Source of the DNA: an uncultured Eubacteriales bacterium | Lineage (GTDB): Bacteria; Bacillota; Clostridia; Christensenellales; Aristaeellaceae | Assembly: GCA_902767565.1 (NCBI GenBank) | Contig: CACXHY010000001.1 | Coordinates: forward strand, 166,217-230,216 | Direction: 5' to 3' | DNA: 64,000 nt | Program-made: the position numbers and the translations under genes | The notes under the pieces: generated by a model | Seen by the model: the letters and a program-made list of their open reading frames with translations, nothing else | Database searches by the model: none | What the model was told of the DNA's origin: nothing | Part shown: positions 5,083 to 22,442 of the stretch, piece by piece | Layout of the letters: each line of letters starts with the position of its first letter | Position numbering within the stretch: position 1 is the stretch's first letter

Positions 5083-5823
5083 TCAGAGGATCCTCTCCGG
5101 CATCCACCGCAGATGATCTCCGGACACCAGCCGGTACAGGATCCCGTTTCTTTCGCCGAGGATGCTGTCGTGAAAGCGGTCCTCCCCGTGACAGTGCGCG
5201 TAGATCACCTGCTCGGCTCCGTATTCCTCCGCCATGTCGGTAAACACGCTGCGCTCCTCCAGGATGCTCGTGGGCGGATAATGCAGGAACATCAGGAACC
5301 GCCGGTAGCCCGCAGCCCGGGCGGCCTCGAAGGAAGCCCTGAGGCGCTCGGCTTCCCGCCGGACCAGTTTCTCCGCCTGCCGTTCCTTCTCCTCGTCCCA
5401 GCCCACGATCCTGCGCCGCCGGTCCAGGTAAAAGGGGCCCTCGAACACGAAACCCTTGGTGCCAACCAGCGCGGCGTCCCCGCAGGCGGCAAAGCTGTTC
5501 TGCACGAAGGTCAGCGCTCCTCCGAATCGTTCGTTCAGCTGAGGGGTCTTCTTCACGTCCCAAAACATGTCATGATTGCCCCGGAACAGGATCTTCCGCC
5601 CCGGAAGAGCCATGATGTATCGGAAGTCCTCCTCGCACTCCGCGAGATCGCGCCCCCAGGAGTGATCCCCCAGCAGGACAAGAGTGTCCCCCGGTCCGAT
5701 CAGGGCGTCACAGTTCCTCCGGAACCGCTTCTCGTGATCCTTCCACAGGCCGGTCAGCTGGCCTCGGGCGTGAAGGGGCGTCTGAAAATGCAGGTGCAGA
5801 TCCCCGATGGCATACAGCCCCAT
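5083..5823 (-). CDS. metallophosphoesterase (calcineurin-like phosphoesterase family)
   Basis: GDLHL, GDHSWG, GNHD and HCHGE metal-binding motifs. Confidence 0.7.
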   Translation of the reverse strand: MGLYAIGDLHLHFQTPLHARGQLTGLWKDHEKRFRRNCDALIGPGDTLVLLGDHSWGRDLAECEEDFRYIMALPGRKILFRGNHDMFWDVKKTPQLNERFGGALTFVQNSFAACGDAALVGTKGFVFEGPFYLDRRRRIVGWDEEKERQAEKLVRREAERLRASFEAARAAGYRRFLMFLHYPPTSILEERSVFTDMAEEYGAEQVIYAHCHGEDRFHDSILGERNGILYRLVSGDHLRWMPERIL

Positions 5824-5975
5824 TCCGCGTCCCTCCCCCGTCCGTCCTTCGCGATCCTTCGCTCCGCTTCATTATAGTCGGCGTTCCCCGCGATTGCAAG
5901 ATGCCGCCGCATTGACATTTCTCCGAAAAAGCGGATAATGGGGAATGTTTTCATTAGCCATCCGGAGGTGATCGC

Positions 5976-8756
5976 GTGCTTGAACTGCGCGGTATCAAGA
6001 GATCCTATCGCACCGGCGAGCTGGTGCAGAAAGCCCTGGACGATGTCAGCCTGACCCTGCGGGACAGCGAATTCGTCTGTGTCCTCGGCCCCAGCGGCAG
6101 CGGAAAGACCACCCTGCTGAACGTGATCGGCGGCCTGGACCGCTACGACAAGGGAGACCTGCTCATCGGCGGCGTCTCCACAAAGTCCTACCGGGAGCGG
6201 GACTGGGACACCTATCGGAACCACACCATCGGCTTCGTGTTCCAGAGCTACAACCTGATCCCCCATCTGTCCGTACTGGCCAACATCGAACTGGCGCTGA
6301 CCATCGCCGGCGTGTCCGCGTCCGAGCGCCGCAGCCGTGCCCGGGAAGCGCTGGCGGAGGTCGGTCTGGCCGGTCAGGAGCACAAGCGGCCCAACCAGAT
6401 GTCCGGCGGCCAGATGCAGCGCGTCGCCATCGCCCGCGCCCTGGTGAACGACCCGGAGATCCTGCTGGCGGACGAGCCCACCGGTGCCCTGGACAGCGAG
6501 ACCTCCGAGCAGGTCATGGCGCTTCTGAAGAAGGTGGCGGAAAAGCGCCTCGTGGTCATGGTCACCCACAACGCGGAACTGGCGGAACAGTACGCCACCC
6601 GCATCGTTCGCCTGCGCGACGGGCGCATCACCGAGGACAGCGATCCCTGTGAAGACAGCCCCGCCGCGCCGGACAGCGCTGGCAAGGTGAAGAAGGCAGG
6701 CATGTCCTTCCTGACCTCCCTCAGCCTCAGCGCCCAGAACCTGCGCACCAAGAAGGGCCGCACCTTCCTGACGGCGCTGGCGGGATCCATCGGCATCATC
6801 GGCATCGCCCTGATCCTCGCCATGTCCTCCAGCGTCAACCAATACATCGTGGATATCCAGCGGGAGACCATGTCCTCCTACCCCGTGACCATCACCGCCC
6901 AGACCGTGGATCTCAGCGGGCTGACGGATCCGCGGGACGAGCTCGTCAATGAGCGGCGCAGCGCCATGGCCGACGCTCGGGAGAATCCGGATGTGATCAG
7001 CGCCGACTATACGCTCATGGAAGCCCGGCAGAACATGACCGGCAGCCTGATCGAGAACAACCTGACCGCCTTCAAGCGCTGGCTGGACGACCCGGAGAGC
7101 GAGATCCACCGGTACGTGGGCGGCAGCGGCATCGTTTACGGCTACAGCGTGGAATTCTCGGTCTACGCGTATGACGGGACCGGAGCCCTGCAGGACACGA
7201 ACAGCGATCCCGACGAGCTCGCAGGGAGCGGCGGACTCGGCTTTGATATGCGGGGCATGCGGGCCATGTCCGTCTTCTTCGGCGGCTCCGCAAGCAGCGG
7301 CGCGTCCAATTTCACCGAGCTGACCCCGGGCGCGGACGGGCAGCCTGTCAGCCAGGTCATTCTGGACAGCTACGAGCTGCTCGCCGGCAGCTGGCCCGCC
7401 GCGGCGGACGAGGTGGTGCTGGTGGTCGGACAGAGCGGGCGGATTTCCGTCAAGACCCTCTACCAGCTGGGACTGATCTCGCTGGAGGAGTATCAGGCCG
7501 CGGCGGATGCCGTCGCGGACGGCACCGAGCCCTCCCTGCCCTCATGGACCCACGCGGAGCTGGTGGGCCGGCGTTTCGTGCTGGTCCCTGCCAGCGAGCG
7601 CTTCGTCGCCAACGGTGACGGCACCTTCCGGGAGCTGGGCACCACGCCGGAGGAGGTCGCCCTGATGGCGGCGAATGGGATCCCCCTGCACGTAAGCGGC
7701 GTCGTGCGCCTCACGGGCAACGGCAGCGCGGTCATCATGGCCCCCGTCGGCTACACCTCCCTGCTGACGGACCTGATCATCGACCGCTGCAATGAGAGCG
7801 CCGTCGTGCAAGCCCAGCTGGCCAGTCCGGACACCAGTGTCCTGACGGGCATCGCCTTCGACCCGGCGGACGACGCCCGGAAGGTCGATGCGGCAAAGCG
7901 CTATATCGCGACGCTCTCCGTCTCGGACAAGGCGACGCTCTACGGCATGATCCTGTACGCCAACCCCGGCGCGTCCTCCTTCGGAAGCATTGGGTCTTCC
8001 GGCATGATGCCCGGCGGAGCGGCCGGCTTCATGCCGGGCGGCATGGACGAGGAAGCCACGGACGCCATGCTCACGGGCATGATCCTGGAGGCGGCGGACG
8101 ACGATACCCTGCTGATGGTCTACGATCAGTATGTGGCCGGCGACAGCTATGAGTCCAACCTGACCAGGTTCGGCTATGTGGACCGCGCATCCCCCGCGTC
8201 GATCTCCATCTACGCGGACAGCTTTGAAGCCAAGGACGCCATCACCGCGTCCATCCGGCGGTACAACGAGACGGTGACCGACAGCGAGAAGATCACCTAC
8301 ACGGACTACATCGCCCTCATCACCTCCTCCATCACCACCATCGTGGACGTCATCTCCTATGTGCTGATCGCCTTCGTGGCGGTATCGCTGGTGGTTTCCT
8401 GCATCATGATCGGCATCATCACCCATATCTCCGTGCTGGAGCGCACCAAGGAGATCGGCATCCTGCGGGCTCTCGGCGCTTCCCGGAGCAACATCACCTC
8501 CGTCTTCAACGCGGAGACGGTCATCGTCGGTTTCTGCGCCGGCCTGATCGGCGTGCTGGCCGCCATGGCGCTGACCGTTCCCATCAATCTGATCCTGCAG
8601 GCCCTCATCGGGTCGACGGGGCTCACCGTCTCCCTGCGGCCGCTGCACGCGCTGATCCTCATCGCCATCTCCATGGCCATCACCGTCGTCGGCGGACTCA
8701 TCCCCGCACGCAAGGCGAGCCGGAAAGATCCCGTGGAAGCCCTGCGCACGGAGTGA
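5976..8756 (+). CDS. ABC transporter, fused ATP-binding and FtsX-type permease (MacB-like)
   Basis: N-terminal Walker A GPSGSGKTT, signature MSGGQMQRVAIARAL, Walker B LLADEPTGALD; C-terminal 4-TM FtsX-like domain; GTG start at 5976 after GGAGGTG. Confidence 0.85.
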   Translation: MLELRGIKRSYRTGELVQKALDDVSLTLRDSEFVCVLGPSGSGKTTLLNVIGGLDRYDKGDLLIGGVSTKSYRERDWDTYRNHTIGFVFQSYNLIPHLSVLANIELALTIAGVSASERRSRAREALAEVGLAGQEHKRPNQMSGGQMQRVAIARALVNDPEILLADEPTGALDSETSEQVMALLKKVAEKRLVVMVTHNAELAEQYATRIVRLRDGRITEDSDPCEDSPAAPDSAGKVKKAGMSFLTSLSLSAQNLRTKKGRTFLTALAGSIGIIGIALILAMSSSVNQYIVDIQRETMSSYPVTITAQTVDLSGLTDPRDELVNERRSAMADARENPDVISADYTLMEARQNMTGSLIENNLTAFKRWLDDPESEIHRYVGGSGIVYGYSVEFSVYAYDGTGALQDTNSDPDELAGSGGLGFDMRGMRAMSVFFGGSASSGASNFTELTPGADGQPVSQVILDSYELLAGSWPAAADEVVLVVGQSGRISVKTLYQLGLISLEEYQAAADAVADGTEPSLPSWTHAELVGRRFVLVPASERFVANGDGTFRELGTTPEEVALMAANGIPLHVSGVVRLTGNGSAVIMAPVGYTSLLTDLIIDRCNESAVVQAQLASPDTSVLTGIAFDPADDARKVDAAKRYIATLSVSDKATLYGMILYANPGASSFGSIGSSGMMPGGAAGFMPGGMDEEATDAMLTGMILEAADDDTLLMVYDQYVAGDSYESNLTRFGYVDRASPASISIYADSFEAKDAITASIRRYNETVTDSEKITYTDYIALITSSITTIVDVISYVLIAFVAVSLVVSCIMIGIITHISVLERTKEIGILRALGASRSNITSVFNAETVIVGFCAGLIGVLAAMALTVPINLILQALIGSTGLTVSLRPLHALILIAISMAITVVGGLIPARKASRKDPVEALRTE

Positions 8757-8850: not shown

Positions 8851-9696
8851 ATGGAGGAGACCGACGTGAAACGACTGCTTGCCCTTCTGCTGGTCCTGAT
8901 CAGCCTCGCCCCGTGCGCCGTGGCCGAACGCCTGCCGGATGAGGTGCTGTTGACCTATTATGACGACAGCATCTTCTTCGGGGATTCCATCACCCAGGGC
9001 TTCCGCCGTTATGTATCCAACCGCCAGCAGACGGATCCGGGATTCATGAGCGGCGTGGAGATCGTGTGCACGGCCAGCATCAGCCTCTACGAGGGAAGCC
9101 GCCGGGGCCTGCAAACCAACCGTTTCCGGTATCGGGGCCAGGATCGTACCTTGTATCAGATCACCCAGCAGATCAGGCCGCAGAAGGTGTTCATCCTGCT
9201 GGGCCTGAACGACCCCGTGGGCATCCAGATCGAAAAGGCCATGGGCTGGATCCGGGACATCATGCGGGGGATGGATGAACTTTGCCCCGGCGTGGAGGTG
9301 TATTTCTTCTCCATGACCCCGGTCACGCCCGGCTACTGCTCGCAGAAGAACCGCCCCCGCTACCAGGAGCAGGTGGACGAGTACAACGCCCGGCTGATCA
9401 TGGTCTGCACGGATATGGGCGCGCATTATGTCGACATCGCGACGCCGCTGAAGGATGAGAACGGTTATCTCGCCTATGACTACAGCAGCGACAAGATCTG
9501 CCACCTCAGCGACGAGGGCGCTGCGGTCTGGGTGCAGGCCCTGTGCGATTATGCCCAGGAGCAGTACGATCTGGGCCTGTGGGTGCCCGGGCAGAACAAT
9601 GCGGGGCCGGAACTGACGCCCTCCACCGCCACGGATCTCGACGGGGCGACGCCTTCCGATCTGCCCTCTGTGCTGACACTGGATCCCAACTACTGA
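8851..9696 (+). CDS. SGNH/GDSL hydrolase family lipoprotein
   Basis: Signal peptide and GDS motif (FFGDSITQGF). Start may be the GTG at 8866 (VKRLLALLLVLISLAPCAV) with RBS GGAGGAG at 8853-8859. Confidence 0.7.
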   Translation: MEETDVKRLLALLLVLISLAPCAVAERLPDEVLLTYYDDSIFFGDSITQGFRRYVSNRQQTDPGFMSGVEIVCTASISLYEGSRRGLQTNRFRYRGQDRTLYQITQQIRPQKVFILLGLNDPVGIQIEKAMGWIRDIMRGMDELCPGVEVYFFSMTPVTPGYCSQKNRPRYQEQVDEYNARLIMVCTDMGAHYVDIATPLKDENGYLAYDYSSDKICHLSDEGAAVWVQALCDYAQEQYDLGLWVPGQNNAGPELTPSTATDLDGATPSDLPSVLTLDPNY

Positions 9697-9732
9697 CGCC
9701 CTGCCGTTTCCGGTTGAGAAAGGAGCCTGTCC

Positions 9733-10185
9733 ATGAAGAAGCTGCTCTCCGCGATCCTGACGCTCTGCCTGCTCTGCGCTTGTGCTCAGTGTGAGCCGGG
9801 CTCCGAAGGCGAGACCCTGCTGGACCGGGTGCTGCGTCTGGTCCCCGACGCCGCCGGGCTGGTGCGCATGAGCGGCGACGACCTCTACGACCTGATCGGC
9901 ATCGATCCCGAAAGCTGCGTGGACTGGGTCTATCTGGCCGCCGCGGATGCCCTGGAGGGGCGGGAACTGATCGTCGTCCTCATGCCCGACGCCGAAAGCG
10001 CCGACGAGGCGGAGACCTTGTTGGATCACTATCTGGAAGCCCGCATGCGGGAGACCCGCAACTACCTCCCCGACGCTTATCAGGCCCTTTCGGAAGCGAG
10101 CGTCGTGCGGCAGGGCTGCCTGCTGATCCTCTCTGTCGCCGCCCCGGAGGCGGATGAAGCCGCCCTGCTGCTTGCGGAGGAGTGA
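9733..10185 (+). CDS. DUF4358-like lipoprotein
   Basis: MKKLLSAILTLCLLCAC signal/lipobox; small acidic secreted protein conserved next to MBOAT/DHHW genes. Confidence 0.55.
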   Translation: MKKLLSAILTLCLLCACAQCEPGSEGETLLDRVLRLVPDAAGLVRMSGDDLYDLIGIDPESCVDWVYLAAADALEGRELIVVLMPDAESADEAETLLDHYLEARMRETRNYLPDAYQALSEASVVRQGCLLILSVAAPEADEAALLLAEE

Positions 10186-10191
10186 CGCCGC

Positions 10192-11571
10192 ATGGTGTTC
10201 AGTTCGTTCACCTTTCTGCTGCTGTTCATGCCCCTGACGCTGCTCGGCTGCCGTCTGCTGCCGGGCAAGGCTCGGATGCCCTTCCTGTTTGCGGCATCCC
10301 TGCTTTTTTATGGCTGGGGCTCTCCCCTGTGGCTGCTCCTGCTGTTCTGGTGCATGCTGGTCTCCTGGGCCGGCACCCTGCTGATGATGCGGGGAGGACG
10401 CCGGCGGCGCTGGTGTCTGGTGCTGATGATCGTGCTGGACCTGCTGCCCCTGTTCTGGTTCAAATACGCCGGCTTTTTCCGGGACACCGTCCAGTCCCTC
10501 ACCGGCTGGAATGCCTTTGAGGCCCTGAGCGGCCTGCTGGGCACGGAGGTGGTCACGCCCATCCTCCCGGCGGGCATTTCCTTCTTTACCTTTCAGGCCA
10601 TTTCCTACATCATCGATGTCTGGCGGGGAGACGCGGGAGCGCAGCGCAGTCCCGTTGTGTTCGGCGTCTATCTCTCGCTTTTCCCCCAGCTGGTGGCCGG
10701 CCCCATCGTGCGCTATTCCGATCTGGAAGCCCAGCTGCTGAGCCATCCGCGTCCCACCTGGGAGCAGATGCGATCCGGCCTGCGCCGCTTCTTTGTCGGT
10801 CTGGGCAAAAAGGTCCTGCTGGCCGACGCCCTGGGCCGCTTCTGGGGGCAGATGAACGGCGACCTGGCGTCGGCGGGAGCGCTCGGCGCATGGGCAGGCC
10901 TGCTGGCCTTCTCCTTTCAGATCTATTTCGACTTCTCCGGTTATTCCGACATGGCGCTGGGCCTGGGCGAAGCGCTGGGCTTCATCATGCCCGAAAACTT
11001 CCTGCATCCCTACCGCGCCATGAGTCTGACCGCTTTCTGGCGGCGCTGGCATGTCTCTCTCACCACCTGGTTCCGTGAGTATGTGTACATCCCTCTGGGC
11101 GGCAACCGCCGGGGCCCATGGCGCAGAGACCTGAACGTGATGATCGTGTGGGCGCTGACGGGCCTGTGGCACGGGGCAGGATGGCATTTCGTGCTGTGGG
11201 GCGTGTACTTCGGCGTCCTGCTGATCCTGGAGAAACGTTTCCTGATCGACACGGGCCGGATGGAGCGCATCCCGAAGCCGTTGCGGCACGTGCTGACTTT
11301 TCTTCTGGTGATGATGGGCTGGGGACTGTTCTCCGGCTTCGGCACTGCCCTGTTCGGGGCGATGTTCGGCTCTGCCGGCTGGGGCTCCGCCGCGGCGCAG
11401 CTGGCCTGCCTCGCCCACGTGCCCCTGCTGCTGTTCTGCTGTGTGATCTCTTTTGCGCCGAAGCTGCCGGACGTGAAAGCCTGGCGCTTCGCGGCCCCCG
11501 TGCTGGCCGTGCTGTGCTTGGCGGCGCTGGCGGCCCAGGGGTACGCTCCCTTCGTCTACTTTGCGTTCTGA
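10192..11571 (+). CDS. MBOAT family O-acyltransferase (DltB/AlgI-like)
   Basis: Multi-TM protein; the conserved His-containing region (WRRWHVSLTTWFREYVYIPLGGNRRG) is typical of membrane-bound O-acyltransferases. Confidence 0.85.
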   Translation: MVFSSFTFLLLFMPLTLLGCRLLPGKARMPFLFAASLLFYGWGSPLWLLLLFWCMLVSWAGTLLMMRGGRRRRWCLVLMIVLDLLPLFWFKYAGFFRDTVQSLTGWNAFEALSGLLGTEVVTPILPAGISFFTFQAISYIIDVWRGDAGAQRSPVVFGVYLSLFPQLVAGPIVRYSDLEAQLLSHPRPTWEQMRSGLRRFFVGLGKKVLLADALGRFWGQMNGDLASAGALGAWAGLLAFSFQIYFDFSGYSDMALGLGEALGFIMPENFLHPYRAMSLTAFWRRWHVSLTTWFREYVYIPLGGNRRGPWRRDLNVMIVWALTGLWHGAGWHFVLWGVYFGVLLILEKRFLIDTGRMERIPKPLRHVLTFLLVMMGWGLFSGFGTALFGAMFGSAGWGSAAAQLACLAHVPLLLFCCVISFAPKLPDVKAWRFAAPVLAVLCLAALAAQGYAPFVYFAF

Positions 11572-11584
11572 GGAGGCTGACGGT

Positions 11585-12718
11585 ATGAAACATGAAAGAC
11601 GTCTGCGCCTCCCCGACGGGGCAGCGGTCACGGCGGGGCTGCTGATCCTGCTGGTCTTCGGCGTGATGGCGGCGCTCGGCTGGGGCGGGACCTTTTCCGA
11701 GCGGGAGAACCGCAACCTGGCACCTGTGCCCGATACGCCCGACCCGGTCAACTGGAATACCGACAAGCAGGTGGAGAGTTATCTCACCGACCACATCCCT
11801 TTCCGCCAGGTCCTGGTGGCGGCGGACAGCGCGGGGCTGTACCTCACGGGGCGCAATTCTCAGCTGAACACCTGGCTGGCGGGCGGCGCGCTGGTGGAGC
11901 GGCCCGTGCAGACGGACGAGCTGTCCCTCCGCGACACGGAGCGCCGGCTGGGCCGTCTGGGCAGTTTCGCGGAAAAGGCCGGCGTCCCCTGGTACATCCT
12001 CACGCCGCCCACCCACGGCAGCCTGACGACAGCCCGCATGTCGCCGCTCATGGCGGCGCAGTACGCGCAGGAGGCGGACATCCACGCGCTGGTGGATGCC
12101 ACGGGTCACCGGGTGGACATGCCGGAGTCCTTCGCGGCCGACCCCGACACCATGTATTACCGCACGGATCACCACTGGACGCTGGCAGGCGCTTACCAGG
12201 CCTACGTGGCGCTGGGGGATGCCCTGGGCTATGCGCCTCTGCCGCTGAACGGCTTCCGGATCACGGAGTACGCCGGTTTCCGCGGCACCACCCTGTCCCG
12301 CTCCGGTCTGCCGTCCCTGTGGTCCGACACGCTGGTCTGCGCGGAGCCCGACAGCCCTGTCACCCTGACCGTGACCGACGGGGACAGCACGGTCACATGG
12401 GATCACCTGATCTTCCCCGAGGACGCCGCCACCTATGACGGCTACGCGGTCTACCTGCACGGGAACCACGGGCTGCTGATCATCGAGCGCCCCGACGCGC
12501 CGGAGGGCACCCTGGTGGTGTTCCGGGATTCCTTCGCCAGCTGCCTGCTGCCCATGCTCAGCCAGCATTACCGCCGGGTCATCGCCGTGGACGCCCGCTA
12601 CTACACCGGCGTTTTCTCCGATGCTCTGGCCGTGAGCGATGACACCGCCGCCATCCTGTATGTGTATTCCCTGGACAGCCTGGTGAACGGCAGTTACATC
12701 ACCCGGAAGGCACGGTAA
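11585..12718 (+). CDS. DHHW family protein (AlgX/AlgJ-like SGNH fold, MBOAT partner)
   Basis: Literal DHHW motif (YYRTDHHWTLAG); N-terminal TM anchor; RBS GAGGAGG before ATG 11585. Confidence 0.8.
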   Translation: MKHERRLRLPDGAAVTAGLLILLVFGVMAALGWGGTFSERENRNLAPVPDTPDPVNWNTDKQVESYLTDHIPFRQVLVAADSAGLYLTGRNSQLNTWLAGGALVERPVQTDELSLRDTERRLGRLGSFAEKAGVPWYILTPPTHGSLTTARMSPLMAAQYAQEADIHALVDATGHRVDMPESFAADPDTMYYRTDHHWTLAGAYQAYVALGDALGYAPLPLNGFRITEYAGFRGTTLSRSGLPSLWSDTLVCAEPDSPVTLTVTDGDSTVTWDHLIFPEDAATYDGYAVYLHGNHGLLIIERPDAPEGTLVVFRDSFASCLLPMLSQHYRRVIAVDARYYTGVFSDALAVSDDTAAILYVYSLDSLVNGSYITRKAR

Positions 12719-12881
12719 CCGTTTCATGGACCGGCAGGCGCATCGCCTGCCTTTTTGCGCCGCGACACAGGCGCTCGGGCCGAACGGCGCCTGGTCCCGC
12801 ATTGCATACTCCGGTCTGTTTTTGCTTGCGTTTGAGCGTCGCTTGTGATATCATTCTCCGCGAACGAAAGGGGTGTTTTTC

Positions 12882-14666
12882 ATGCGAAAGCAGCTGACGG
12901 ATCTGCGCGCGGTCATGCGGGAGAACCATGTGGACTGGGTGCTGGTGCCCACCGACGACTTCCATGCCTCCGAATACGTGGGATCCTATTTCAAGAGCCG
13001 CACCTTCCTGACGGGTTTCACAGGCAGCGCCGGCGTGGCGCTGGCGGGAAAGGACTGGGCCGGTCTGTGGACGGACGGCCGCTATTTCCTGCAGGCAGGC
13101 ATGCAGCTGGAGGGTTCCGGCTTTGAGCTGATGAAGATGGGCGAAAAGGACGTGCCCACGATCCCCCGGTATCTGGAAAAGCACCTGAAAGCCGGGGACG
13201 TGCTCTCCTTCGACGGCCGCACCGTCACCGCGAAGCAGGCCGCTGCCTACCGCGAGATCTGCGGGAAGGCCGGCGCGACGCTGCGCACGGATCTGGACCT
13301 GGTCGGGAGCATCTGGACGGATCGCCCGGCCCTCTCCGCCGAGCCGGTGTTCGAGCTGGACGTGGCCTGGACCGGAAAGAGCCGCACCGACAAGCTGGCG
13401 GAGATCCGCGGGGCGCTGCGCGATGAGGGAGCGGATGCCCTGGTGCTGTCCTCCCTGATGGACATCTGCTGGCTGCTGAACATCCGGGGCAACGACGTCA
13501 CCAGTACCCCGGTGGTGCTCAGCTATATGATCCTCACCCAGGCGGAAGCCCGGCTGTTCATCAATCGCGCCGTGCTGTCGGACGAGATCCTCGGCCGTCT
13601 GGAAAAGGACGGCGTGTCGATCGAGCGGTATGAGGACATTCTTCCCGCCGTGGCGAAGCTGCCCGCCGGGGCGAGGGTGTGGGCGGACCTGCGCACGGTG
13701 AACTCCGCCATTGAGGACGCGCTGCCCGAGGGCGTTACCGTTATCGACAAGCAGAACCCCACGGTGGTCCCCAAGGCCTGCAAGAACCCCACCGAGGTGG
13801 CCAATTTCCGTCAGGCTCACGTCAGGGACGGCGTGGCCGTCACCCGCTTCATCCACTGGCTGAAACACACCGTCGGCAAAGAACCCGTCACCGAGCTCAG
13901 CGCGGCCGCGAAACTGGAAACCTTCCGGGAAGCCCAGGAGCACTACATCGAGCCCAGCTTCTCTCCCATCATCGGCTACGGACCTCACGGAGCCATCATC
14001 CACTACGGCGCGACGGAGGAGAGCGATGTGCCGCTGGAGCCCCGCGGCTTCCTGCTGGCCGATACCGGCGGACACTATCTGGAGGGCACCACCGACATCA
14101 CCCGCACCATCGCCCTGGGGCCGCTGACCGAAGAGGAGAAGCGCATGTATACGCTGGTCCTCCGCAGCCACCTGCAGCTCGGCGCCGTCCGGTTCAAATA
14201 CGGATGCACCGGCCTGAACCTGGACTATGCGGCCAGGGCGCCCTTCTGGAAGGAAGGCCTGGACTACAACCACGGCACCGGCCACGGCGTGGGCTATGTG
14301 CTGGGCGTGCACGAGGGTCCCCAGAGCTTCCGCTGGCGCAGCGCCGGCACGGAACCCGCGGCCGTGCTGGAACCCGGCATGATCACCAGCGACGAGCCCG
14401 GCATCTATCTGGAGGGCAAGTTCGGCGTCCGCATCGAAAACCTGACGGTGGTGTGCGAGAGCGGCGAGACGGAGTACGGCCGCTTCCTGCACACGGAGCA
14501 TCTGACCATGGTGCCCTATGAACTGGACGCCGTGGAGCCTTCCCTGATGACCGCCGAGGAACGGGAACTGCTGAACGCCTATCATCGCCGTGTGCGCGAA
14601 GTCCTCACGCCCTTCCTGCCCGCGGAGGAAGCGGAATGGCTGAAGGAAGCCACCCGCGAGATCTGA
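12882..14666 (+). CDS. Xaa-Pro aminopeptidase (M24B, aminopeptidase P, long form with creatinase-like N-domains)
   Basis: Metal ligands HGTGHGVG, EPGIY and ENL are present; 594 aa; RBS AAAGGGG before ATG 12882. Confidence 0.85.
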   Translation: MRKQLTDLRAVMRENHVDWVLVPTDDFHASEYVGSYFKSRTFLTGFTGSAGVALAGKDWAGLWTDGRYFLQAGMQLEGSGFELMKMGEKDVPTIPRYLEKHLKAGDVLSFDGRTVTAKQAAAYREICGKAGATLRTDLDLVGSIWTDRPALSAEPVFELDVAWTGKSRTDKLAEIRGALRDEGADALVLSSLMDICWLLNIRGNDVTSTPVVLSYMILTQAEARLFINRAVLSDEILGRLEKDGVSIERYEDILPAVAKLPAGARVWADLRTVNSAIEDALPEGVTVIDKQNPTVVPKACKNPTEVANFRQAHVRDGVAVTRFIHWLKHTVGKEPVTELSAAAKLETFREAQEHYIEPSFSPIIGYGPHGAIIHYGATEESDVPLEPRGFLLADTGGHYLEGTTDITRTIALGPLTEEEKRMYTLVLRSHLQLGAVRFKYGCTGLNLDYAARAPFWKEGLDYNHGTGHGVGYVLGVHEGPQSFRWRSAGTEPAAVLEPGMITSDEPGIYLEGKFGVRIENLTVVCESGETEYGRFLHTEHLTMVPYELDAVEPSLMTAEERELLNAYHRRVREVLTPFLPAEEAEWLKEATREI

Positions 14667-14702
14667 AGCCCGAACCCACCCTGACATACGGGAGGAACGC
14701 CC

Positions 14703-15392
14703 ATGCGCAAGGGAGACGAATCCAAACAGCAGATCATTCGCGCCGCCGAGCGCCTGTTCTGCGCCAACGGCTTTGATGAGACCAGCGTGCAGCGCATCCT
14801 TGAGGAGGTCCACGGCAGCAAGGGCGGCTTCTACCACCACTTTGCCAGCAAGGAAGACCTCCTGCGGGCCATCTGCATGCAGCGCGCGGAAGCCGCGGCT
14901 TCCCGGGTGCTCAACGAGGTCAGCGAGCCCGATCCCCTTCGGCAGCTGGACCGGCTGCTCGGCGCCGTGATGCCCTTCTCGAAGGACGACCTGGTCTTCA
15001 TGGGCATGCTGATCCCCATCCTGGACCGCCCCGAGAGCACCCCCGTCCGGGTGGGTTATCAGGACGCGCTGGCAGCGGCCTTCGGACCCATGGTGCAGGG
15101 CTGCATCGAGGAGACGGCCGCCGACGGTACGCTGATGCCCGCAGATCCGAATATCACCGCGCCGGTCATGACCCTGCTGAACGCCTGCTGGTATGATACG
15201 GCGCTCCTGCTGCTGAAGAATATCAGGGAGGGGCGGCCCACCGACCCTTCGGCCCTGCTGGAGCGGCTGACCACCTGCCGCCGTTGCCTGGAGGTGCTGC
15301 TGGACGCGCCTTACGGCAGCCTGACCCTCGTTTCCCTGGAGGACTGGGCGGTTTTTGCCGAGGGCATTGCCCGTCAGATCCGGCGGCAGTAG
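14703..15392 (+). CDS. TetR/AcrR family transcriptional regulator
   Basis: N-terminal HTH (IIRAAERLFCANGFDETSVQRILEEVHGSKGGFYHHFASKEDLL). Confidence 0.85.
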   Translation: MRKGDESKQQIIRAAERLFCANGFDETSVQRILEEVHGSKGGFYHHFASKEDLLRAICMQRAEAAASRVLNEVSEPDPLRQLDRLLGAVMPFSKDDLVFMGMLIPILDRPESTPVRVGYQDALAAAFGPMVQGCIEETAADGTLMPADPNITAPVMTLLNACWYDTALLLLKNIREGRPTDPSALLERLTTCRRCLEVLLDAPYGSLTLVSLEDWAVFAEGIARQIRRQ

Positions 15393-15464
15393 CCGTTTCC
15401 ATCACCCGATTTCCGCACGGAGCGCGCCTCCGCGGGCACGCTCCCGCCAATGAAAGGATCCCGT

Positions 15465-17471
15465 ATGAAAGCGCTGATTCTGAACGCCGGCCTGGGCTCC
15501 CGCATGGGCAGCCTGACCGCTGAGCACCCCAAGTGCATGACCGAGATCGCCCCCGCGGAGACCATCCTCTCCCGTCAGCTCCGCCAGCTTTGCGATGCGG
15601 GCATCACGGATGTGATCATGGCGACGGGCTATTATCATGATGTGCTGACCGCGTACTGCGAAAGCCTGGGGCTGCCCCTGCGCGTCACCTTTGTGCGGAA
15701 TCCCCGTTTTCGCGAGACCAACTACATCTACAGCATCTACTGCGCCCGCGAGCTGCTGGACGACGACCTCCTGCTGATGCACGGCGACCTGGTCTTCGAG
15801 AACGAAGCCCTGGACCGCATCCTCGCCCACGAGGGCAGCTGCATGGCGGTGTCCTCCACCCTCCCCCTGCCGGAGAAGGATTTCAAGGCGGTCGTCGCGG
15901 ACGGAAAAGTCCTCAGGGTCGGCGTGAACTTCTTCACCGATGCCATGGAGGCCCAGGCCCTGTACAAGCTGCGCCGGGAGGACTGGCGGATCTGGCTGGA
16001 CAGCATTGCCGCCTTCTGCGAGGCAGGCCGGGACACGGTCTACGCCGAGGATGCCCTGAACGCGCTGGACGGCGCGGCCAACATCGGCGCGGCTGACCTG
16101 CAGAACCTGCTGTGCGCCGAGATCGACAACGCGGAAGATCTGGCGGTGGTGAAGGCCCGGCTCCGGGAGGTGGAACGCCGCACGGTCTATGTCTGCTTCG
16201 CCACCGATGTGCTGCACGCCGGGCATTTTGCCATTCTGGAAAAGGCCCGGCGTCTCGGCCATGTGACCGTGGGCGTGATGAGCGACGAGGCCGTGGCCAC
16301 CTACAAGCGTTTCCCCCTGGTGAACGAAGCCGACCGGGTCGCGATGTTCCGCAACGTGGTGGGCGTGGAGCGCGTGGTGGTGCAAAAGACCCTCAGTTAC
16401 AGGGAGAATCTGGAAAAGTACCGCCCGGACATCGTGGTCCACGGGGACGACTGGCGCAGCGGCATCCAGAAGCCCATCCGGGACGAGGTGGTATCCGTAC
16501 TGGCCTCTTACGGCGGGCGCCTGGTGGAATTCCCCTACGCCCGGGATGAGCAGCACGCCGCCCTGGACAAGCGCCTGAACGCGGAGCTGGGCACCCCGGA
16601 CGTCCGCCGGGGGCGGCTGCGCCGGGTGCTGGCCATGAAGGGCCTGGTCACCGCCATGGAGGCCCACTCCGGCCTCACCGGGCTGATCGTCGAAAAGACC
16701 GTGGTGGCCGAGAACGGCGGCGTGCGCCAGTTCGACGCCATGTGGATCTCCTCCCTGTGCGATTCCACCGCCAAGGGCAAGCCGGACATCGAGCTGGTGG
16801 ACATGACCTCCCGTTTCCGCACCATCGACGACATCATGGAGGTCACCACCAAGCCCATCATCTTCGACGGCGACACCGGCGGGCTGACGGAGCACTTCGT
16901 CTACACCGTGCGCTCTCTGGAACGGATGGGCGTCTCCATGGTCATCATCGAGGATAAGACCGGCCTGAAGAAGAACAGCCTCTTCGGGACGGAGGTGCCC
17001 CAGACCCAGGAGAGCATCGAAAACTTCTGCGCCAAGATCCGTGCCGGCAAGGCTGCCCAGAAGACCCGGGAGTTCATGATCTGCGCCCGCATCGAAAGCC
17101 TGATCCTGGAGCGCGGCATGGAGGACGCCCTCACCCGGGCCTTCGCCTTTGCGGAAGCCGGGGCCGACGCCGTCATGATCCACAGCCGCAAAAAGGATCC
17201 CGCCGAGATCTTCGAATTCATCGAGAAGTTCCGGGCGAAGGACGGCACGACCCCCATCGTGCTGGTGCCCACCTCCTTCAACACCGTGTATGAGGAGGAG
17301 TTCAAGGAGCGCGGCGCCAACATCATCATTTACGCCAACCATCTCACCCGCACGGGCTTCCCTGCCATGCAGGACGCGGCGCAGACCATCCTGCGCAGTC
17401 ACCGCGCGAAGGAATGCGATGACAAGTGCATGTCCATCAAGGACATCATCACCCTGATCCCGGAGGAGTGA
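15465..17471 (+). CDS. pepM: tri-domain phosphonate biosynthesis protein: LicC/PntC-like nucleotidyltransferase + HxGH cytidylyltransferase + phosphoenolpyruvate mutase (PepM)
   Basis: aa 1-~230 carry the GxGxR-type motif (MKALILNAGLGSRMG) of sugar/choline-phosphate nucleotidyltransferases. aa ~240-380 carry HxGH (VYVCFATDVLHAGHF), as in GCT/Fom1-type cytidylyltransferases. aa ~390-669 carry the PepM hallmark IIEDKTGLKKNSLFG (EDK-x5-NS) and LRRVLAMKGLVTAMEAHSGLTGLIVE. RBS GAAAGGA before ATG 15465. Confidence 0.8.
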   Translation: MKALILNAGLGSRMGSLTAEHPKCMTEIAPAETILSRQLRQLCDAGITDVIMATGYYHDVLTAYCESLGLPLRVTFVRNPRFRETNYIYSIYCARELLDDDLLLMHGDLVFENEALDRILAHEGSCMAVSSTLPLPEKDFKAVVADGKVLRVGVNFFTDAMEAQALYKLRREDWRIWLDSIAAFCEAGRDTVYAEDALNALDGAANIGAADLQNLLCAEIDNAEDLAVVKARLREVERRTVYVCFATDVLHAGHFAILEKARRLGHVTVGVMSDEAVATYKRFPLVNEADRVAMFRNVVGVERVVVQKTLSYRENLEKYRPDIVVHGDDWRSGIQKPIRDEVVSVLASYGGRLVEFPYARDEQHAALDKRLNAELGTPDVRRGRLRRVLAMKGLVTAMEAHSGLTGLIVEKTVVAENGGVRQFDAMWISSLCDSTAKGKPDIELVDMTSRFRTIDDIMEVTTKPIIFDGDTGGLTEHFVYTVRSLERMGVSMVIIEDKTGLKKNSLFGTEVPQTQESIENFCAKIRAGKAAQKTREFMICARIESLILERGMEDALTRAFAFAEAGADAVMIHSRKKDPAEIFEFIEKFRAKDGTTPIVLVPTSFNTVYEEEFKERGANIIIYANHLTRTGFPAMQDAAQTILRSHRAKECDDKCMSIKDIITLIPEE

Positions 17472-17474
17472 CCC

Positions 17475-18581
17475 ATGACACAGCGGATCCTGACACCCAA
17501 CGGACATTACCGCGAACTGGATGAAGCGCTTCGTGACCTGGGCGTCACCCGGCTGCTGCTGGTATGCGACGGGGCCTGGGAGCACCTCGACATCCGGCAT
17601 TGGGCAGAAGAACTCCGGGATGTGACCGTGACCTTCTTCCGGGACTTTCAGCCCAACCCCCGGTACGAGTCCGTCGCCGCCGGCGTGCGGTGCTTCCGGG
17701 AGGCGGACGCGCAGGCGATCTTCGCGGCGGGCGGAGGCTCGGCCATGGACGTGGCCAAATGCATCAAGCTTTTCTGCCGGATGGATGCGGGGCGCAATTA
17801 CCTGGATCAGCCCATCGTTCCCAACGATGTGCCGCTGATCGCCATGCCCACCACCGCGGGCACCGGCTCCGAGGCCACCCGTTATGCCGTCATCTACCGG
17901 GACGGCGAAAAGCAGTCCGTGACCCACGACAGTATCGTCCCCTCGGTGGTGCTGATGGATCCGAGCGCGCTGCGCATGCTGCCACCCTACCAGAGAAAAG
18001 CCACCATGCTGGACGCTCTCTGCCACGCGGTCGAATCCTGCTGGTCGGTCCACAGCACCGACGAGAGCCGCACATACGCGAGGGAGGCCATTTCTCTTGT
18101 GACGGCCCATATGCCGGGCTATCTCGCCAACGCGGAGGAGGGCAACGCGGGCATGCTGCGGGCAGCCAACACCGCGGGCAAAGCCATCAACATCACCCAG
18201 ACCACAGCCGGCCACGCCATGTGCTACAAGCTCACCAGCCTGTATGGCCTTGCCCACGGCCATGCCGCTGCCCTGTGCAACCGGGCGCTGTTTCCCTGGA
18301 TGCTGGCGCACCCGGAGCGCTGCACGGATCCGCGGGGGCCGGAGCACCTGCAGGCCGCGCTTCGGGACATCGCGTCCGCCATGAGCTGCGAAGCCCCGGA
18401 ACAGGCGGCGGACAAGCTGGATCGGCTGGTGCGGGATCTCGGCCTGAGCGTCCCCTCCCCCGCTCCGGAAGACTTTGACACGCTGGTCCGCTCGGTCAAC
18501 CCGGTGCGGCTGAAGAATTTCCCGATGAGGCTCGGGGAGGACGACATCACGGCGCTGTATCACCGCATCCTCCGGGCCTGA
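17475..18581 (+). CDS. iron-containing (group III) alcohol dehydrogenase, probable phosphonoacetaldehyde reductase (PhpC/FomC-like)
   Basis: Fe-ADH family motifs (GGGSAMDVAK, metal His cluster HAMCYKL...HGHA); sits between pepM and ppd; translationally coupled (GGAGGAG overlaps the pepM stop). Confidence 0.7.
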   Translation: MTQRILTPNGHYRELDEALRDLGVTRLLLVCDGAWEHLDIRHWAEELRDVTVTFFRDFQPNPRYESVAAGVRCFREADAQAIFAAGGGSAMDVAKCIKLFCRMDAGRNYLDQPIVPNDVPLIAMPTTAGTGSEATRYAVIYRDGEKQSVTHDSIVPSVVLMDPSALRMLPPYQRKATMLDALCHAVESCWSVHSTDESRTYAREAISLVTAHMPGYLANAEEGNAGMLRAANTAGKAINITQTTAGHAMCYKLTSLYGLAHGHAAALCNRALFPWMLAHPERCTDPRGPEHLQAALRDIASAMSCEAPEQAADKLDRLVRDLGLSVPSPAPEDFDTLVRSVNPVRLKNFPMRLGEDDITALYHRILRA

Positions 18582-18623
18582 GGTCGGTTCCGCGGAACCC
18601 ATTCACCGAGAAGAGGCGATATC

Positions 18624-19751
18624 ATGAACGTACAGACCTTCCTGCGGATCCTCGGCGCCGACTTCTACACCGGTGTGCCGGACAGCCAGCTGAAAGCCCT
18701 GTGCAACGCGCTGATGGCTGCCTACGGCATCGACCCGCGGCACCATGTGATCGCGGCCAACGAGGGCAACTGCGCCGCCCTGGCCGCGGGCTACCACCTC
18801 GCGACGGGCAGGGTCCCCGTGGTGTACATGCAGAACAGCGGCGAGGGCAACATCATCAATCCCGCGGCTTCCCTGCTGAACGGGAAGGTGTACGCCATCC
18901 CCGTGATTTTCGTGATCGGGTGGCGCGGCGAGCCCGGCGTCCACGACGAGCCCCAGCACATCTGGCAGGGCGAGGTGACCGTCAAGCTGCTGGAGGACAT
19001 GGACATCCCCTCCTTCGTCATCGGGAAGGACACCGCGGACGCCGAGGCGGAGGCGGCCATGGCGGGCTTCCGGGAGGAACTGGCCAAAGGGCGGGACGTG
19101 GCATTCGTCATCCGCAAGGGCGCCCTGACAGACGCCCCGGCCGTGCGCTACGAAAACGCAAACACCATGCTCCGGGAGGATATCATCCGGCATGTCGCCG
19201 CGGTCAGCGGGGATGATCCCGTCGTGTCCACCACAGGCAAGGCCTCCCGGGAACTCTTCGAGATCCGGGAAGCCCGAGGCGAAGGCCACGGGAAGGATTT
19301 CCTGACCGTCGGTTCCATGGGGCACGCCTCGTCCATCGCGCTGGGAGTGGCCCTGCAGAAGCCGGTCACCCGGGTGTGGTGCGTGGACGGCGACGGCGCG
19401 GCCCTGATGCATATGGGCGCCATGGCCGTCATCGGCGCGAACCGGCCCCGGAACCTGATCCATGTGATCATCAACAACGGCGCCCACGAGACCGTCGGCG
19501 GCATGCCCACCGCGGCCTCCCGGATCGATCTGACCGGTGTCGCCGCAGCCTGCGGCTATCCCAGCGCGGTGTGCGTGGACACCTTTGCGGATCTCGACCG
19601 CGAACTCGCGGCCGCCCGGGATCGCGGGGAACTGAGCCTGATCGAGGTGAAATGCGCCATCGGCGCGCGGGAGGACCTGGGCCGCCCGACCACCACCGCC
19701 CTGGAGAACAAACGGCGTTTCATGGAGTATCTTCGGGGGGACGGGGAATAA
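18624..19751 (+). CDS. ppd: phosphonopyruvate decarboxylase (TPP-dependent)
   Basis: N-terminus MNVQTFLRILGADFYTGVPDSQLKAL and ~375 aa length are characteristic of Ppd/AepY; TPP-binding GDG...NN region (VDGDGAALMHMG...IINNGAHET). Confidence 0.8.
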   Translation: MNVQTFLRILGADFYTGVPDSQLKALCNALMAAYGIDPRHHVIAANEGNCAALAAGYHLATGRVPVVYMQNSGEGNIINPAASLLNGKVYAIPVIFVIGWRGEPGVHDEPQHIWQGEVTVKLLEDMDIPSFVIGKDTADAEAEAAMAGFREELAKGRDVAFVIRKGALTDAPAVRYENANTMLREDIIRHVAAVSGDDPVVSTTGKASRELFEIREARGEGHGKDFLTVGSMGHASSIALGVALQKPVTRVWCVDGDGAALMHMGAMAVIGANRPRNLIHVIINNGAHETVGGMPTAASRIDLTGVAAACGYPSAVCVDTFADLDRELAAARDRGELSLIEVKCAIGAREDLGRPTTTALENKRRFMEYLRGDGE

Positions 19752-19765
19752 GACCCTCCGCACGC

Positions 19766-19804
19766 AAAAACCAGAGGCCGTTTCTGTCGACCTCTGGTTT
19801 TTTA
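19766..19804. terminator. bidirectional rho-independent terminator between ppd (+) and the KH-domain gene (-)
   Basis: AAAAA-CCAGAGG...CCTCTGG-TTTTTTT hairpin flanked by an A-tract and a T-tract. Confidence 0.7.
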
Positions 19805-19832
19805 TTCCATAATCGTCGGATGGGATCCGCGA

Positions 19833-22353: not shown

Positions 22354-22442
22354 GGAGCGGTATCGAAGTGGTCATAACGGCCCTGACTCGAAATCAGGTG
22401 ACGGGCAACCGTCCGTGGGTTCGAATCCCACCCGCTCCGCCA
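22354..22442 (+). tRNA. tRNA-Ser (anticodon CGA), 89 nt, long variable arm, CCA encoded
   Basis: Acceptor GGAGCGG/CCGCTCC; anticodon stem CCTGA/TCAGG with loop CTCGAAA; long variable arm; T-arm GTGGG-TTCGAAT-CCCAC; discriminator G plus CCA. Confidence 0.85.

Follow-up and report, generated by a model that had tools for sequence, protein, structure and literature searches.

Several described phosphonate systems resemble parts of the three-gene cassette analyzed here, which lies in a 64,000-nt stretch (the window) of contig CACXHY010000001.1 from an uncultured Eubacteriales bacterium of the Aristaeellaceae. Fom1 from Streptomyces wedmorensis (PDB 5X3D) carries an HxGH cytidylyltransferase (CyTase or CT) domain fused in front of a phosphoenolpyruvate (PEP) mutase (Ppm or PepM) domain, has phosphonopyruvate decarboxylase (Ppd) and an Fe-containing alcohol dehydrogenase (Fe-ADH) as partners, and is the enzyme cited for the formation of CMP-activated 2-hydroxyethylphosphonate (CMP-HEP) (Rice 2019, PMC6697681). 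The PntC enzymes (Tde1415 of Treponema denticola, PDB 6PD1/6PD2, and Ari1348), which, together with LicC from Streptococcus pneumoniae (PDB 1JYK), represent the PF12804/PF00483 fold family, are LicC-like proteins that cytidylylate a phosphonate, 2-aminoethylphosphonate (AEP) (Rice 2019, PMC6697681). A third point of reference is the HEP branch point, where the combination of Ppm, Ppd, and the dehydrogenase PhpC, FomC, or DhpG predicts HEP as the product (Ppm-Ppd-PhpC logic; Li & Horsman 2022); HEP is also a known glycan substituent, as in the HEP-decorated exopolysaccharide of Stackebrandtia nassauensis (Li & Horsman 2022). Among the motif-bearing Ppm sequences in RefSeq, fusions with PF12804 comprise 33.0%, those with PF01467 23.6%, and those with both domains, exactly the architecture of the first gene of the cassette, 2.9% (Rice 2019, Nat Commun 10:3698; PMC6697681). 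That class was only counted, with no member, product, context, or biochemistry reported there.

Viewed against these systems, the cassette would work like a Fom1-type CT-PepM protein merged with a PntC-type tailoring transferase. Its three genes, all on the + strand, probably constitute one operon that makes CMP-activated HEP from PEP. The genes, the predicted domains of gene 1, and the end of the operon are as follows (coordinates, here and below, are positions in the window, except those given after a locus number such as L152, which are positions in that locus):

15465..17471, + strand: gene 1, an open reading frame (ORF) of 668 aa for a predicted tri-domain protein (nucleotidyltransferase, cytidylyltransferase, and PEP mutase; PF12804 + PF01467 + PF13714)
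15465..16169, + strand: N-terminal domain of gene 1 (residues 1-235), a LicC/PntC-like NTP transferase of the "HGD" subfamily (remote PDB matches, signature)
16170..16580, + strand: middle domain of gene 1 (approximately residues 236-372), a Fom1-type HxGH cytidylyltransferase (5X3D similarity, fold)
16617..17468, + strand: C-terminal domain of gene 1 (residues 385-668), PEP mutase (TIGR02320, motif, fold)
17475..18581, + strand: gene 2 (368 aa), a group-III Fe-ADH (Fe-ADH + ADH_Fe_C), putative phosphonoacetaldehyde reductase
18624..19751, + strand: gene 3 (375 aa), phosphonopyruvate decarboxylase, Ppd (TIGR03297, TPP_enzyme_N + TPP_enzyme_C)
19766..19808, no strand assigned: bidirectional intrinsic terminator separating gene 3 from a convergent KH-domain gene (hairpin between an A-run and a T-run)

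The three + strand ORFs delineated in a first-pass annotation of this DNA are all present and intact, and the strings MKALILNAGLGSRMG, CFATDVLHAGHF, and IIEDKTGLKKNSLFG that it quoted are all found in the gene 1 protein. Judging from its sequence, the C-terminal domain of this protein is, as had been proposed, a bona fide PEP mutase, and the equivalog match, the signature motif, and the order of the structural matches agree on this assignment. PF13714 matches residues 389-643, and the score of the PEP mutase equivalog TIGR02320 is 399.3 bits (cutoff, 319.55), compared with 147 bits (cutoff, 374) and 83 bits (cutoff, 354) for the sister families Pphn_pyruv_hyd and prpB, respectively. The EDKxxxxxNS motif, which serves as the criterion for Ppm (Rice 2019, PMC6697681), corresponds to the loop E496-D497-K498-TGLKK-N504-S505, and its motif residues are invariant in sets of 33 and 78 homologs. 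An AlphaFold2 model of the entire gene 1 protein has a mean pLDDT of 75.9, with low values in the gating loop and the C-terminal helix. The best Foldseek matches for the PEP mutase part are 5UNC, 1S2W, and 1PYM (30 to 33% identity), with methylisocitrate lyases behind them at ~22%. Grouping with isocitrate or methylisocitrate lyases, which had been named as the outcome that would speak against a PEP mutase, is thus seen neither in the profile scores nor in the fold. The assignment of gene 3 to Ppd is equally well founded: its product matches the phosphonopyruvate decarboxylase equivalog TIGR03297 with 453.6 bits (cutoff, 312.5) over profile positions 1-360 of 360 and contains both TPP-binding domains.

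The middle domain, placed directly N-terminal to PepM in gene 1, is closely related in sequence and predicted fold to the HEP cytidylyltransferase domain of Fom1; formation of CMP-HEP, known for Fom1 only, would be shared by homology. PF01467 matches residues 248-343, and the rfaE_dom_II profile is covered at positions 4-138 of 144. A phmmer comparison with the Fom1 CyTase (5X3D) gave an E value of 2.7e-37 over 125 residues, and the HEP-CMP-bound Fom1 structure is the closest one to this domain, the Foldseek alignment having a TMt of 0.95 and an rmsd of 1.2 Å at 47% identity, in good agreement with the earlier description of this domain as a Fom1-like HxGH cytidylyltransferase. The HxGH motif itself is represented by H251-A-G-H254, with both His residues invariant in the homologs.

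In contrast to Fom1, gene 1 encodes an additional N-terminal domain, matched by PF12804/PF00483 at residues 3-122. Its sequence matches in PDB are LicC (1JYK; E value, 1.7e-9), inositol-1-phosphate cytidylyltransferase (IPCT; 2XME; 5e-8), and Tde-PntC (6PD1; 8e-7). The domain shares with PntC and LicC the GxGxR...K signature, the acidic metal-site residues, and the association with Ppm and LicD genes, which bears out the earlier LicC/PntC-like assignment, but sequence similarity to these enzymes is remote (E values of 1e-9 to 1e-6), and, whereas Tde1415 is fused to an AEP transaminase, the domain analyzed here is partnered by an alcohol dehydrogenase. The family to which it belongs can be recognized by an "HGD" signature (G9xG11xR13, K23, TNYIxS90, H106-G-D108, KDxK141, YAE195, and E219xD221) that is kept, depending on the position, in ~95 to 100% of 127 family representatives. 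The residues G9, G11, R13, K23, D108, E219, and D221, each kept in at least 119 of the 127, align with LicC and Tde-PntC; the last two fall on what we take to be the EID motif of LicC. Invariant columns in an alignment of 78 full-length homologs number 76 of 230 in the N-terminal domain, 42 of 142 in the middle domain, and 165 of 284 in PepM, and all family-invariant residues that were checked are present in the window protein. Given this strong conservation, none of the three domains looks like a decaying relic, and the concern that the two transferase domains might be inactive remnants finds no basis in their sequences.

Gene 2 is a predicted phosphonoacetaldehyde reductase. Of 80 species-level loci (the best 80 of at least 579, these 80 all encoding full-length relatives of the gene 1 protein with 69 to 76% identity), 72 have it next to the fusion gene, a homolog with 60% identity bears the NCBI name "phosphonoacetaldehyde reductase," and its two Fe-ADH domains fit the role that the first-pass annotation had assigned to it by position. 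The likeness to PhpC, FomC, and DhpG is one of domain type and gene neighborhood; the hosts of the cassette, in distinction from those of the described HEP systems, are uncultured anaerobic gut and rumen bacteria. In the proposed pathway, the PEP mutase domain would convert PEP to phosphonopyruvate, Ppd would carry out the irreversible decarboxylation of the latter to phosphonoacetaldehyde, the Fe-ADH would reduce phosphonoacetaldehyde to HEP, and the cytidylyltransferase domains would combine HEP with CTP to yield CMP-HEP, a logic already outlined in the first-pass annotation that holds by homology. In most relatives, the phosphonyl group would next be moved onto a surface glycan by a LicD-family or TagF-like phosphotransferase whose gene is part of the polysaccharide locus that holds the cassette, with the N-terminal "HGD" transferase perhaps passing the product of the ADH to LicD. 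The catalytic activities, HEP as the product, the choice of the transferase domain that takes HEP, and the glycan acceptor are all to be read as predictions.

The local signals are those of an operon. For gene 1, the ATG at 15465 is favored as the start over the upstream ATG at 15450, because all homologs begin with MKALIL and because a Shine-Dalgarno sequence, AAAGGA, is located 7 nt upstream of the former. The TGA of gene 1 and the ATG of gene 2 are separated by 3 nt, with a GGAG within the end of gene 1, and translational coupling, originally suggested for all three genes, holds for this pair; it does not hold for genes 2 and 3, which are 42 nt apart, gene 3 having its own GAGG. The operon ends with a hairpin at 19766-19802 (dG, -18.7 kcal/mol; z, -4.2) that has a long loop and was missed by a consensus promoter/terminator scan but was confirmed by direct folding. 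This terminator serves both the cassette and the convergent KH-rpsP-ffh genes that form its downstream flank. An Rfam scan of the window gave a tRNA at 22354-22439 as its sole match, and no riboswitch or RNA element of another kind ahead of gene 1.

Strong comparative evidence for a single pathway comes from permuted ("Rosetta-stone") fusions. A HMMER search with the N-terminal domain alone retrieved 190 representatives at an E value of ≤1e-30, and the best 150 of these were analyzed, of which 126 were at least 225 aa long. Approximately 79 of the 126 have no other cassette domain and are mostly stand-alone proteins of ~240 aa, and 43 are fusions of the N-domain with Fe-ADH (~600 aa), in which the ADH part is 31 to 49% identical to gene 2. 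Further fusions have the architectures N+ADH+LicD (890 to 912 aa), N+ADH+LicD+LicD (1228 aa), N+CT (375 to 438 aa), and N+CT+ADH (751 aa). The gene orders in three such loci are as follows:

L148: N-ADH, kinase, CT-PepM, methyltransferase, Ppd
L151: CT-PepM ... LicD, GT2, N-CT-ADH, LicD
L152: CT-PepM, Ppd, N-ADH-LicD-LicD

Because these five activities recur in permuted fusions, they would seem to belong to one pathway. In these proteins, the N-domain travels with ADH and LicD, and the Fom1-like domain stays with PEP mutase, a pattern that suggests a division of labor between the two transferase domains. In L152 (8439-15982), two giant fusions are encoded next to each other right after CT-PepM and Ppd; one consists of NTP-transferase, Fe-ADH, and two LicD domains (1228 aa) and the other of Fe-ADH, TagF-like glycerophosphotransferase, and MptE-like domains (1287 aa).

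The fusion of two transferase domains with PEP mutase, described in the first-pass annotation as unusual, is in fact widespread and, as noted above, was inventoried previously. The 120 best matches in a collection of 5.8 billion proteins are all full-length tri-domain proteins with 75 to 83% identity, and relatives are encoded in at least 579 of the genomes scanned, each representing one GTDB species. The carriers include members of Clostridia (Lachnospiraceae, Ruminococcus, Oscillospiraceae, and Christensenellales), Prevotella and other Bacteroidales, Chloroflexi (Flexilinea), and Lentisphaeria. The identity of ~70% between the proteins from Firmicutes and Bacteroidetes is far beyond what vertical inheritance would leave, and the fusion gene has evidently spread by horizontal transfer between anaerobes of the gut and rumen. 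With at least 579 species in four phyla at identities of ~70% or above, the cassette is among the most widely shared phosphonate modules of these organisms. Two metagenome-assembled genomes, RGIG5966 (L003 and L059) and Lapin-003-2__bin46 (L018 and L019), each carry two tri-domain copies on different contigs, which suggests either that a genome may have several glycan loci with phosphonate decoration or that contigs were mis-binned.

The arrangement of the cassette was counted by tblastn, as greedy ORF calling loses real genes to antisense ORFs at high GC. The order fusion-ADH-Ppd, that of the window, is found in 55 of the 80 loci, and the order fusion-Ppd-ADH in 9, all of them from Bacteroidales/Prevotella; the three genes are contiguous in 64 loci. 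Eight loci have the fusion gene and ADH only (four of these on truncated contigs), 3 have the fusion gene and Ppd without ADH, and 5 have neither. In the Bacteroidales/Prevotella loci L052, L062, L068-L071, L073, L076, and L079, where the order of Ppd and ADH is swapped relative to the window, the fusion protein is ~70% identical to that of the window, compared with 48 to 53% for Ppd and 40 to 47% for ADH; in these bacteria, the fusion gene either is under far stronger constraint or has been exchanged apart from its Ppd and ADH partners. Other variants include L006 (12000-17700) and L060 (7707-8495), where an extra stand-alone N-domain paralog of 237 to 262 aa, with no more than 60% identity to residues 1-240, is encoded; in L006, it adjoins a short-chain dehydrogenase at the usual place of the Fe-ADH.

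For the 77 related loci that had a call for the fusion gene, all neighbors were clustered and then assigned to families by Pfam scans. LicD is encoded in 29 of the 77 loci (44 copies overall), Wzx-type flippases in 19, GT2 glycosyltransferases and epimerases in 17 each, TagF-like CDP-glycerol glycerophosphotransferases in ~14, hexapeptide acyltransferases in 13, GT4 glycosyltransferases in 11, and class-V aminotransferases in 5. Of the 43 loci whose flanks extend for 8 kb or more on both sides, 24 encode LicD or a TagF-like protein within 10 kb. The nearest relatives of the window protein (78 to 83% identity) are encoded in surface-glycan loci rich in LicD genes; those of P0007 represent textbook Wzx/Wzy polysaccharide loci in which the cassette is flanked by LicD genes on both sides; and, in the cultured strain Ruminococcus flavefaciens 007c, the cassette is likewise part of a LicD/Wzy/flippase-type locus, with an aminotransferase gene upstream. 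The cassette is thus often located among LicD, TagF-like, Wzx/Wzy, and glycosyltransferase genes. Phosphonate decorations alter the charge, phosphatase resistance, and antigenicity of the bacterial surface and lock phosphorus in C-P bonds. What is new here is the distribution of the cassette, its conserved three-gene makeup, and the permuted fusions; the domain architecture itself had already been catalogued.

The immediate surroundings of the cassette in the window are of a different kind. The pepP and TetR genes on its upstream side are as follows:

12873-14666: pepP, Xaa-Pro aminopeptidase (domain scan)
14703..15392, + strand: TetR-family regulator (TetR_N), a doubtful member of the cassette that probably goes with pepP

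Adjacent pepP and TetR genes are conserved in related Clostridia with or without the cassette (67 to 85% identity for pepP and 44 to 77% for TetR). The pair is kept in L090 (pepP 85% identical), where the contig stops inside TetR and is uninformative on the cassette, and in L091 (77%), where it is followed by a gene for a secreted SH3-like protein and no cassette. In L035 (67%), the pair is found at 5541-8039 (12873-15392 in the window), and the cassette adjoins pepP on the opposite side in divergent orientation. Among the 80 other cassette loci, L035 is the only one with a TetR homolog, which is adjacent to pepP and oriented away from the cassette. The three genes do lie downstream of TetR, as described in the first-pass annotation, but its inclusion in the cluster is not sustained, TetR being conserved with pepP whether or not the cassette is present; it probably belongs with pepP and not with the phosphonate genes.

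On the other side, the window Ffh is ~83% identical to sequences labeled Aristaeellaceae, and relatives with Ffh proteins that are 95%, 90%, and 86% identical retain the ylxM-ffh-rpsP-KH block without the cassette beyond KH. In L153, L154, and L155 (~12000 in each), the region after KH is occupied by tRNA synthetases, GH94, or a phage integrase followed by scpB, so that, in this lineage, the junction resembles a hot spot of recombination. The GC content is 0.65 to 0.66 over the operon and 0.60 to 0.67 in the flanks, and the GC content at third codon positions (GC3) of the cassette genes, 0.84 to 0.89, is the same as that of the host; a compositional test for foreign origin therefore gave no signal, which indicates that the insertion is not recent or that the donor was similar in composition. 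The patchy presence of the cassette at a rearrangement-prone junction is consistent with either acquisition or relocation. The horizontal acquisition proposed in the first-pass annotation thus has on its side the patchy presence in close relatives and the cross-phylum identity, but draws nothing from GC or GC3. An independent metagenome contig (L089) covers the window from 5976 into the middle of gene 1, and its proteins are 97 to 100% identical to their window counterparts.

Several observations weigh against the interpretation of the cassette as an operon for CMP-HEP destined for a glycan. No paper characterizing the tri-domain protein or the transfer of CMP-HEP to glycans was found in the literature. 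Gene 2 reaches no NCBIfam equivalog, scoring 134 bits against PsrA (TIGR03405), for which the cutoff is 424. In PntC and LicC, the substrate amine is contacted by Glu104 of Tde-PntC and Asp105 of Spn-LicC (Rice 2019, PMC6697681), whereas His106, which aligns with Tde-PntC Glu104, is a His in 126 of the 127 "HGD" representatives. As the amine-contacting acid is replaced, the substrate of the N-domain would not simply be that of PntC; an invariant His106 would be compatible with a non-amine substrate such as HEP. In the alignment inferred here, E195 seems to preserve a second acidic position, that of Tde Glu196. Further, 19 of the 43 well-flanked loci have no LicD or TagF-like gene within 10 kb, and in the window itself, tblastn with related-locus neighbors as queries detected no homologs of LicD, TagF-like proteins, or flippases, nor of the class-V AEP transaminase, and a search for the CDP-alcohol transferase motif found none. 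The statement in the first-pass annotation that AEP transaminase, LicD, and CDP-alcohol transferase genes are lacking nearby can accordingly be extended to the entire window. With no transferase in these 64 kb, the final transfer step would need to be encoded elsewhere in the genome, and the genes of the window do not add up to a complete Pnt glycan pathway as defined by Rice 2019. A glycan destination in this particular genome is an unproven analogy with the related loci. Finally, the two transferase domains are redundant if both make CMP-HEP, yet both are strongly constrained, which the simple scheme leaves without an explanation.

It is conceivable, though not likely, that each of the two domains has a task of its own. 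The N-terminal "HGD" domain would then be a new HEP-specific branch of PntC that gives CMP-HEP to LicD, and the Fom1-like domain would have another role. The latter domain might then act on a second phosphonate, use another nucleotide, or supply monomers for a teichoic-acid-like poly(hydroxyethylphosphonate). If true, the polymer version would mean an unrecognized C-P surface polymer, built by TagF-/LicD-type enzymes, in many gut and rumen anaerobes. The permuted fusions (N-ADH-LicD versus CT-PepM) make the question of the two transferases directly testable; the window copy adds little here beyond another example.

Other explanations of the cassette differ mainly in where its product would go. 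It could yield a free small phosphonate, for instance HEP that is secreted or a precursor of the fosfomycin or phosphinothricin type; CMP-HEP would then be a transient species, as it is in Streptomyces fosfomycin biosynthesis, and TetR a potential regulator. This is unlikely, even though the middle domain is the nearest known relative of the Fom1 CyTase, the TetR gene is only 72 nt upstream, and LicD and TagF transferases are missing from the window and from the vicinity of the 19 loci mentioned above. The 5 kb on either side hold only pepP, TetR, KH, rpsP, and ffh, with no radical-SAM methyltransferase, epoxidase, CMP-phosphonate hydrolase, ATP-grasp enzyme, or exporter; the TetR gene goes with pepP; the relatives are overwhelmingly found within glycan loci; and LicD is physically fused to relatives of the N-domain. 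The flanks likewise lack the Fom3 radical-SAM methyltransferase, Fom4 epoxidase, and FomD hydrolase of the Fom1 system, whose setting in an antibiotic cluster contrasts with the polysaccharide loci of the cassette relatives. A fosfomycin-type antibiotic cluster was ruled out, the whole flanking set being pepP, TetR, KH, rpsP, ffh, and ylxM. Just as improbable is the view that the operon is an orphan piece of a glycan locus that was moved by rearrangement or transfer and is silent or functionless without its transferase partners. It would account for the cassette lying inside LicD/Wzy loci in the nearest relatives but between housekeeping genes here, with no partner in 64 kb, and for its absence after KH in the three genomes with the closest Ffh proteins and after TetR in the relative with a 77% identical pepP. 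Nevertheless, the three ORFs are intact and equipped with ribosome-binding sites and a terminator, the family-invariant residues that were checked are all in place, the host-like GC3 argues for long residence under selection, and a near-identical copy is found on the independent contig L089, which ends inside gene 1. The cassette in the window is an ordinary copy, detached from its usual partners, of a known and catalogued kind whose biochemistry is predicted.

The chances are still lower that the pathway ends in AEP or another non-HEP phosphonate, with the PntC-like domain activating AEP, a transaminase encoded elsewhere, and the Fe-ADH in some other role. The characterized PntC enzymes do prefer AEP (Rice 2019, PMC6697681), and class-V aminotransferase genes occur in five related loci as well as upstream of the R. 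flavefaciens cassette. In L036 (12036-13136), a minority variant, the Fe-ADH gene is replaced by such an AEP-transaminase-like gene directly after the fusion gene, a hint that this type of fusion protein may also be able to work in an AEP branch. However, no class-V, AEP transaminase-like homolog is found in the window, the ADH accompanies the fusion gene in 72 of the 80 loci and is itself fused to relatives of the N-domain, and the position of PntC Glu104 is taken by an invariant His. In pneumococci, CDP-2-glycerol is made and used by an Fe-ADH-type reductase, a LicC-like cytidylyltransferase, and LicD-type transfer. This precedent, along with the TagF-like genes in ~14 related loci, is the reason to consider the N-domain and Fe-ADH as a Gtp2/Gtp1-like pair that makes a CDP-polyol, such as CDP-2-glycerol, and is linked to PEP mutase by coincidence. 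Such a role is very improbable: there is no Gtp3-like phosphotransferase, Ppm and Ppd are the sole substrate-generating enzymes in the window, and all three inspected contexts of N+ADH-type fusions lie beside CT-PepM, two of them also with Ppd.

Farther upstream, the window contains a surface O-acylation-type cluster of four genes, closed by a terminator (8851-12751), and an ABC/FtsX-type gene that precedes it:

5976-8756: ABC/FtsX-type gene
8851-9696: GDSL lipase-like
9733-10185: DUF4358 lipoprotein
10192-11571: MBOAT
11561-12718: DHHW/AlgX-like
12733-12751: strong terminator closing the cluster

The suggestion that this cluster hints at the acceptor of the phosphonate did not survive: the terminator at 12733-12751 and pepP intervene, and a functional link between the cassette and the MBOAT, DHHW, and GDSL genes was dropped. 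MBOAT neighbors occur in only 3 to 4 of ~80 related cassette loci, so no specific connection of O-acylation with the cassette is visible. On the opposite side, past the ylxM-ffh-rpsP-KH block and ~2.6 kb from the cassette, a tRNA-Ser(CGA) gene at 22354-22442 is the sole Rfam/ARAGORN match in the 64 kb.

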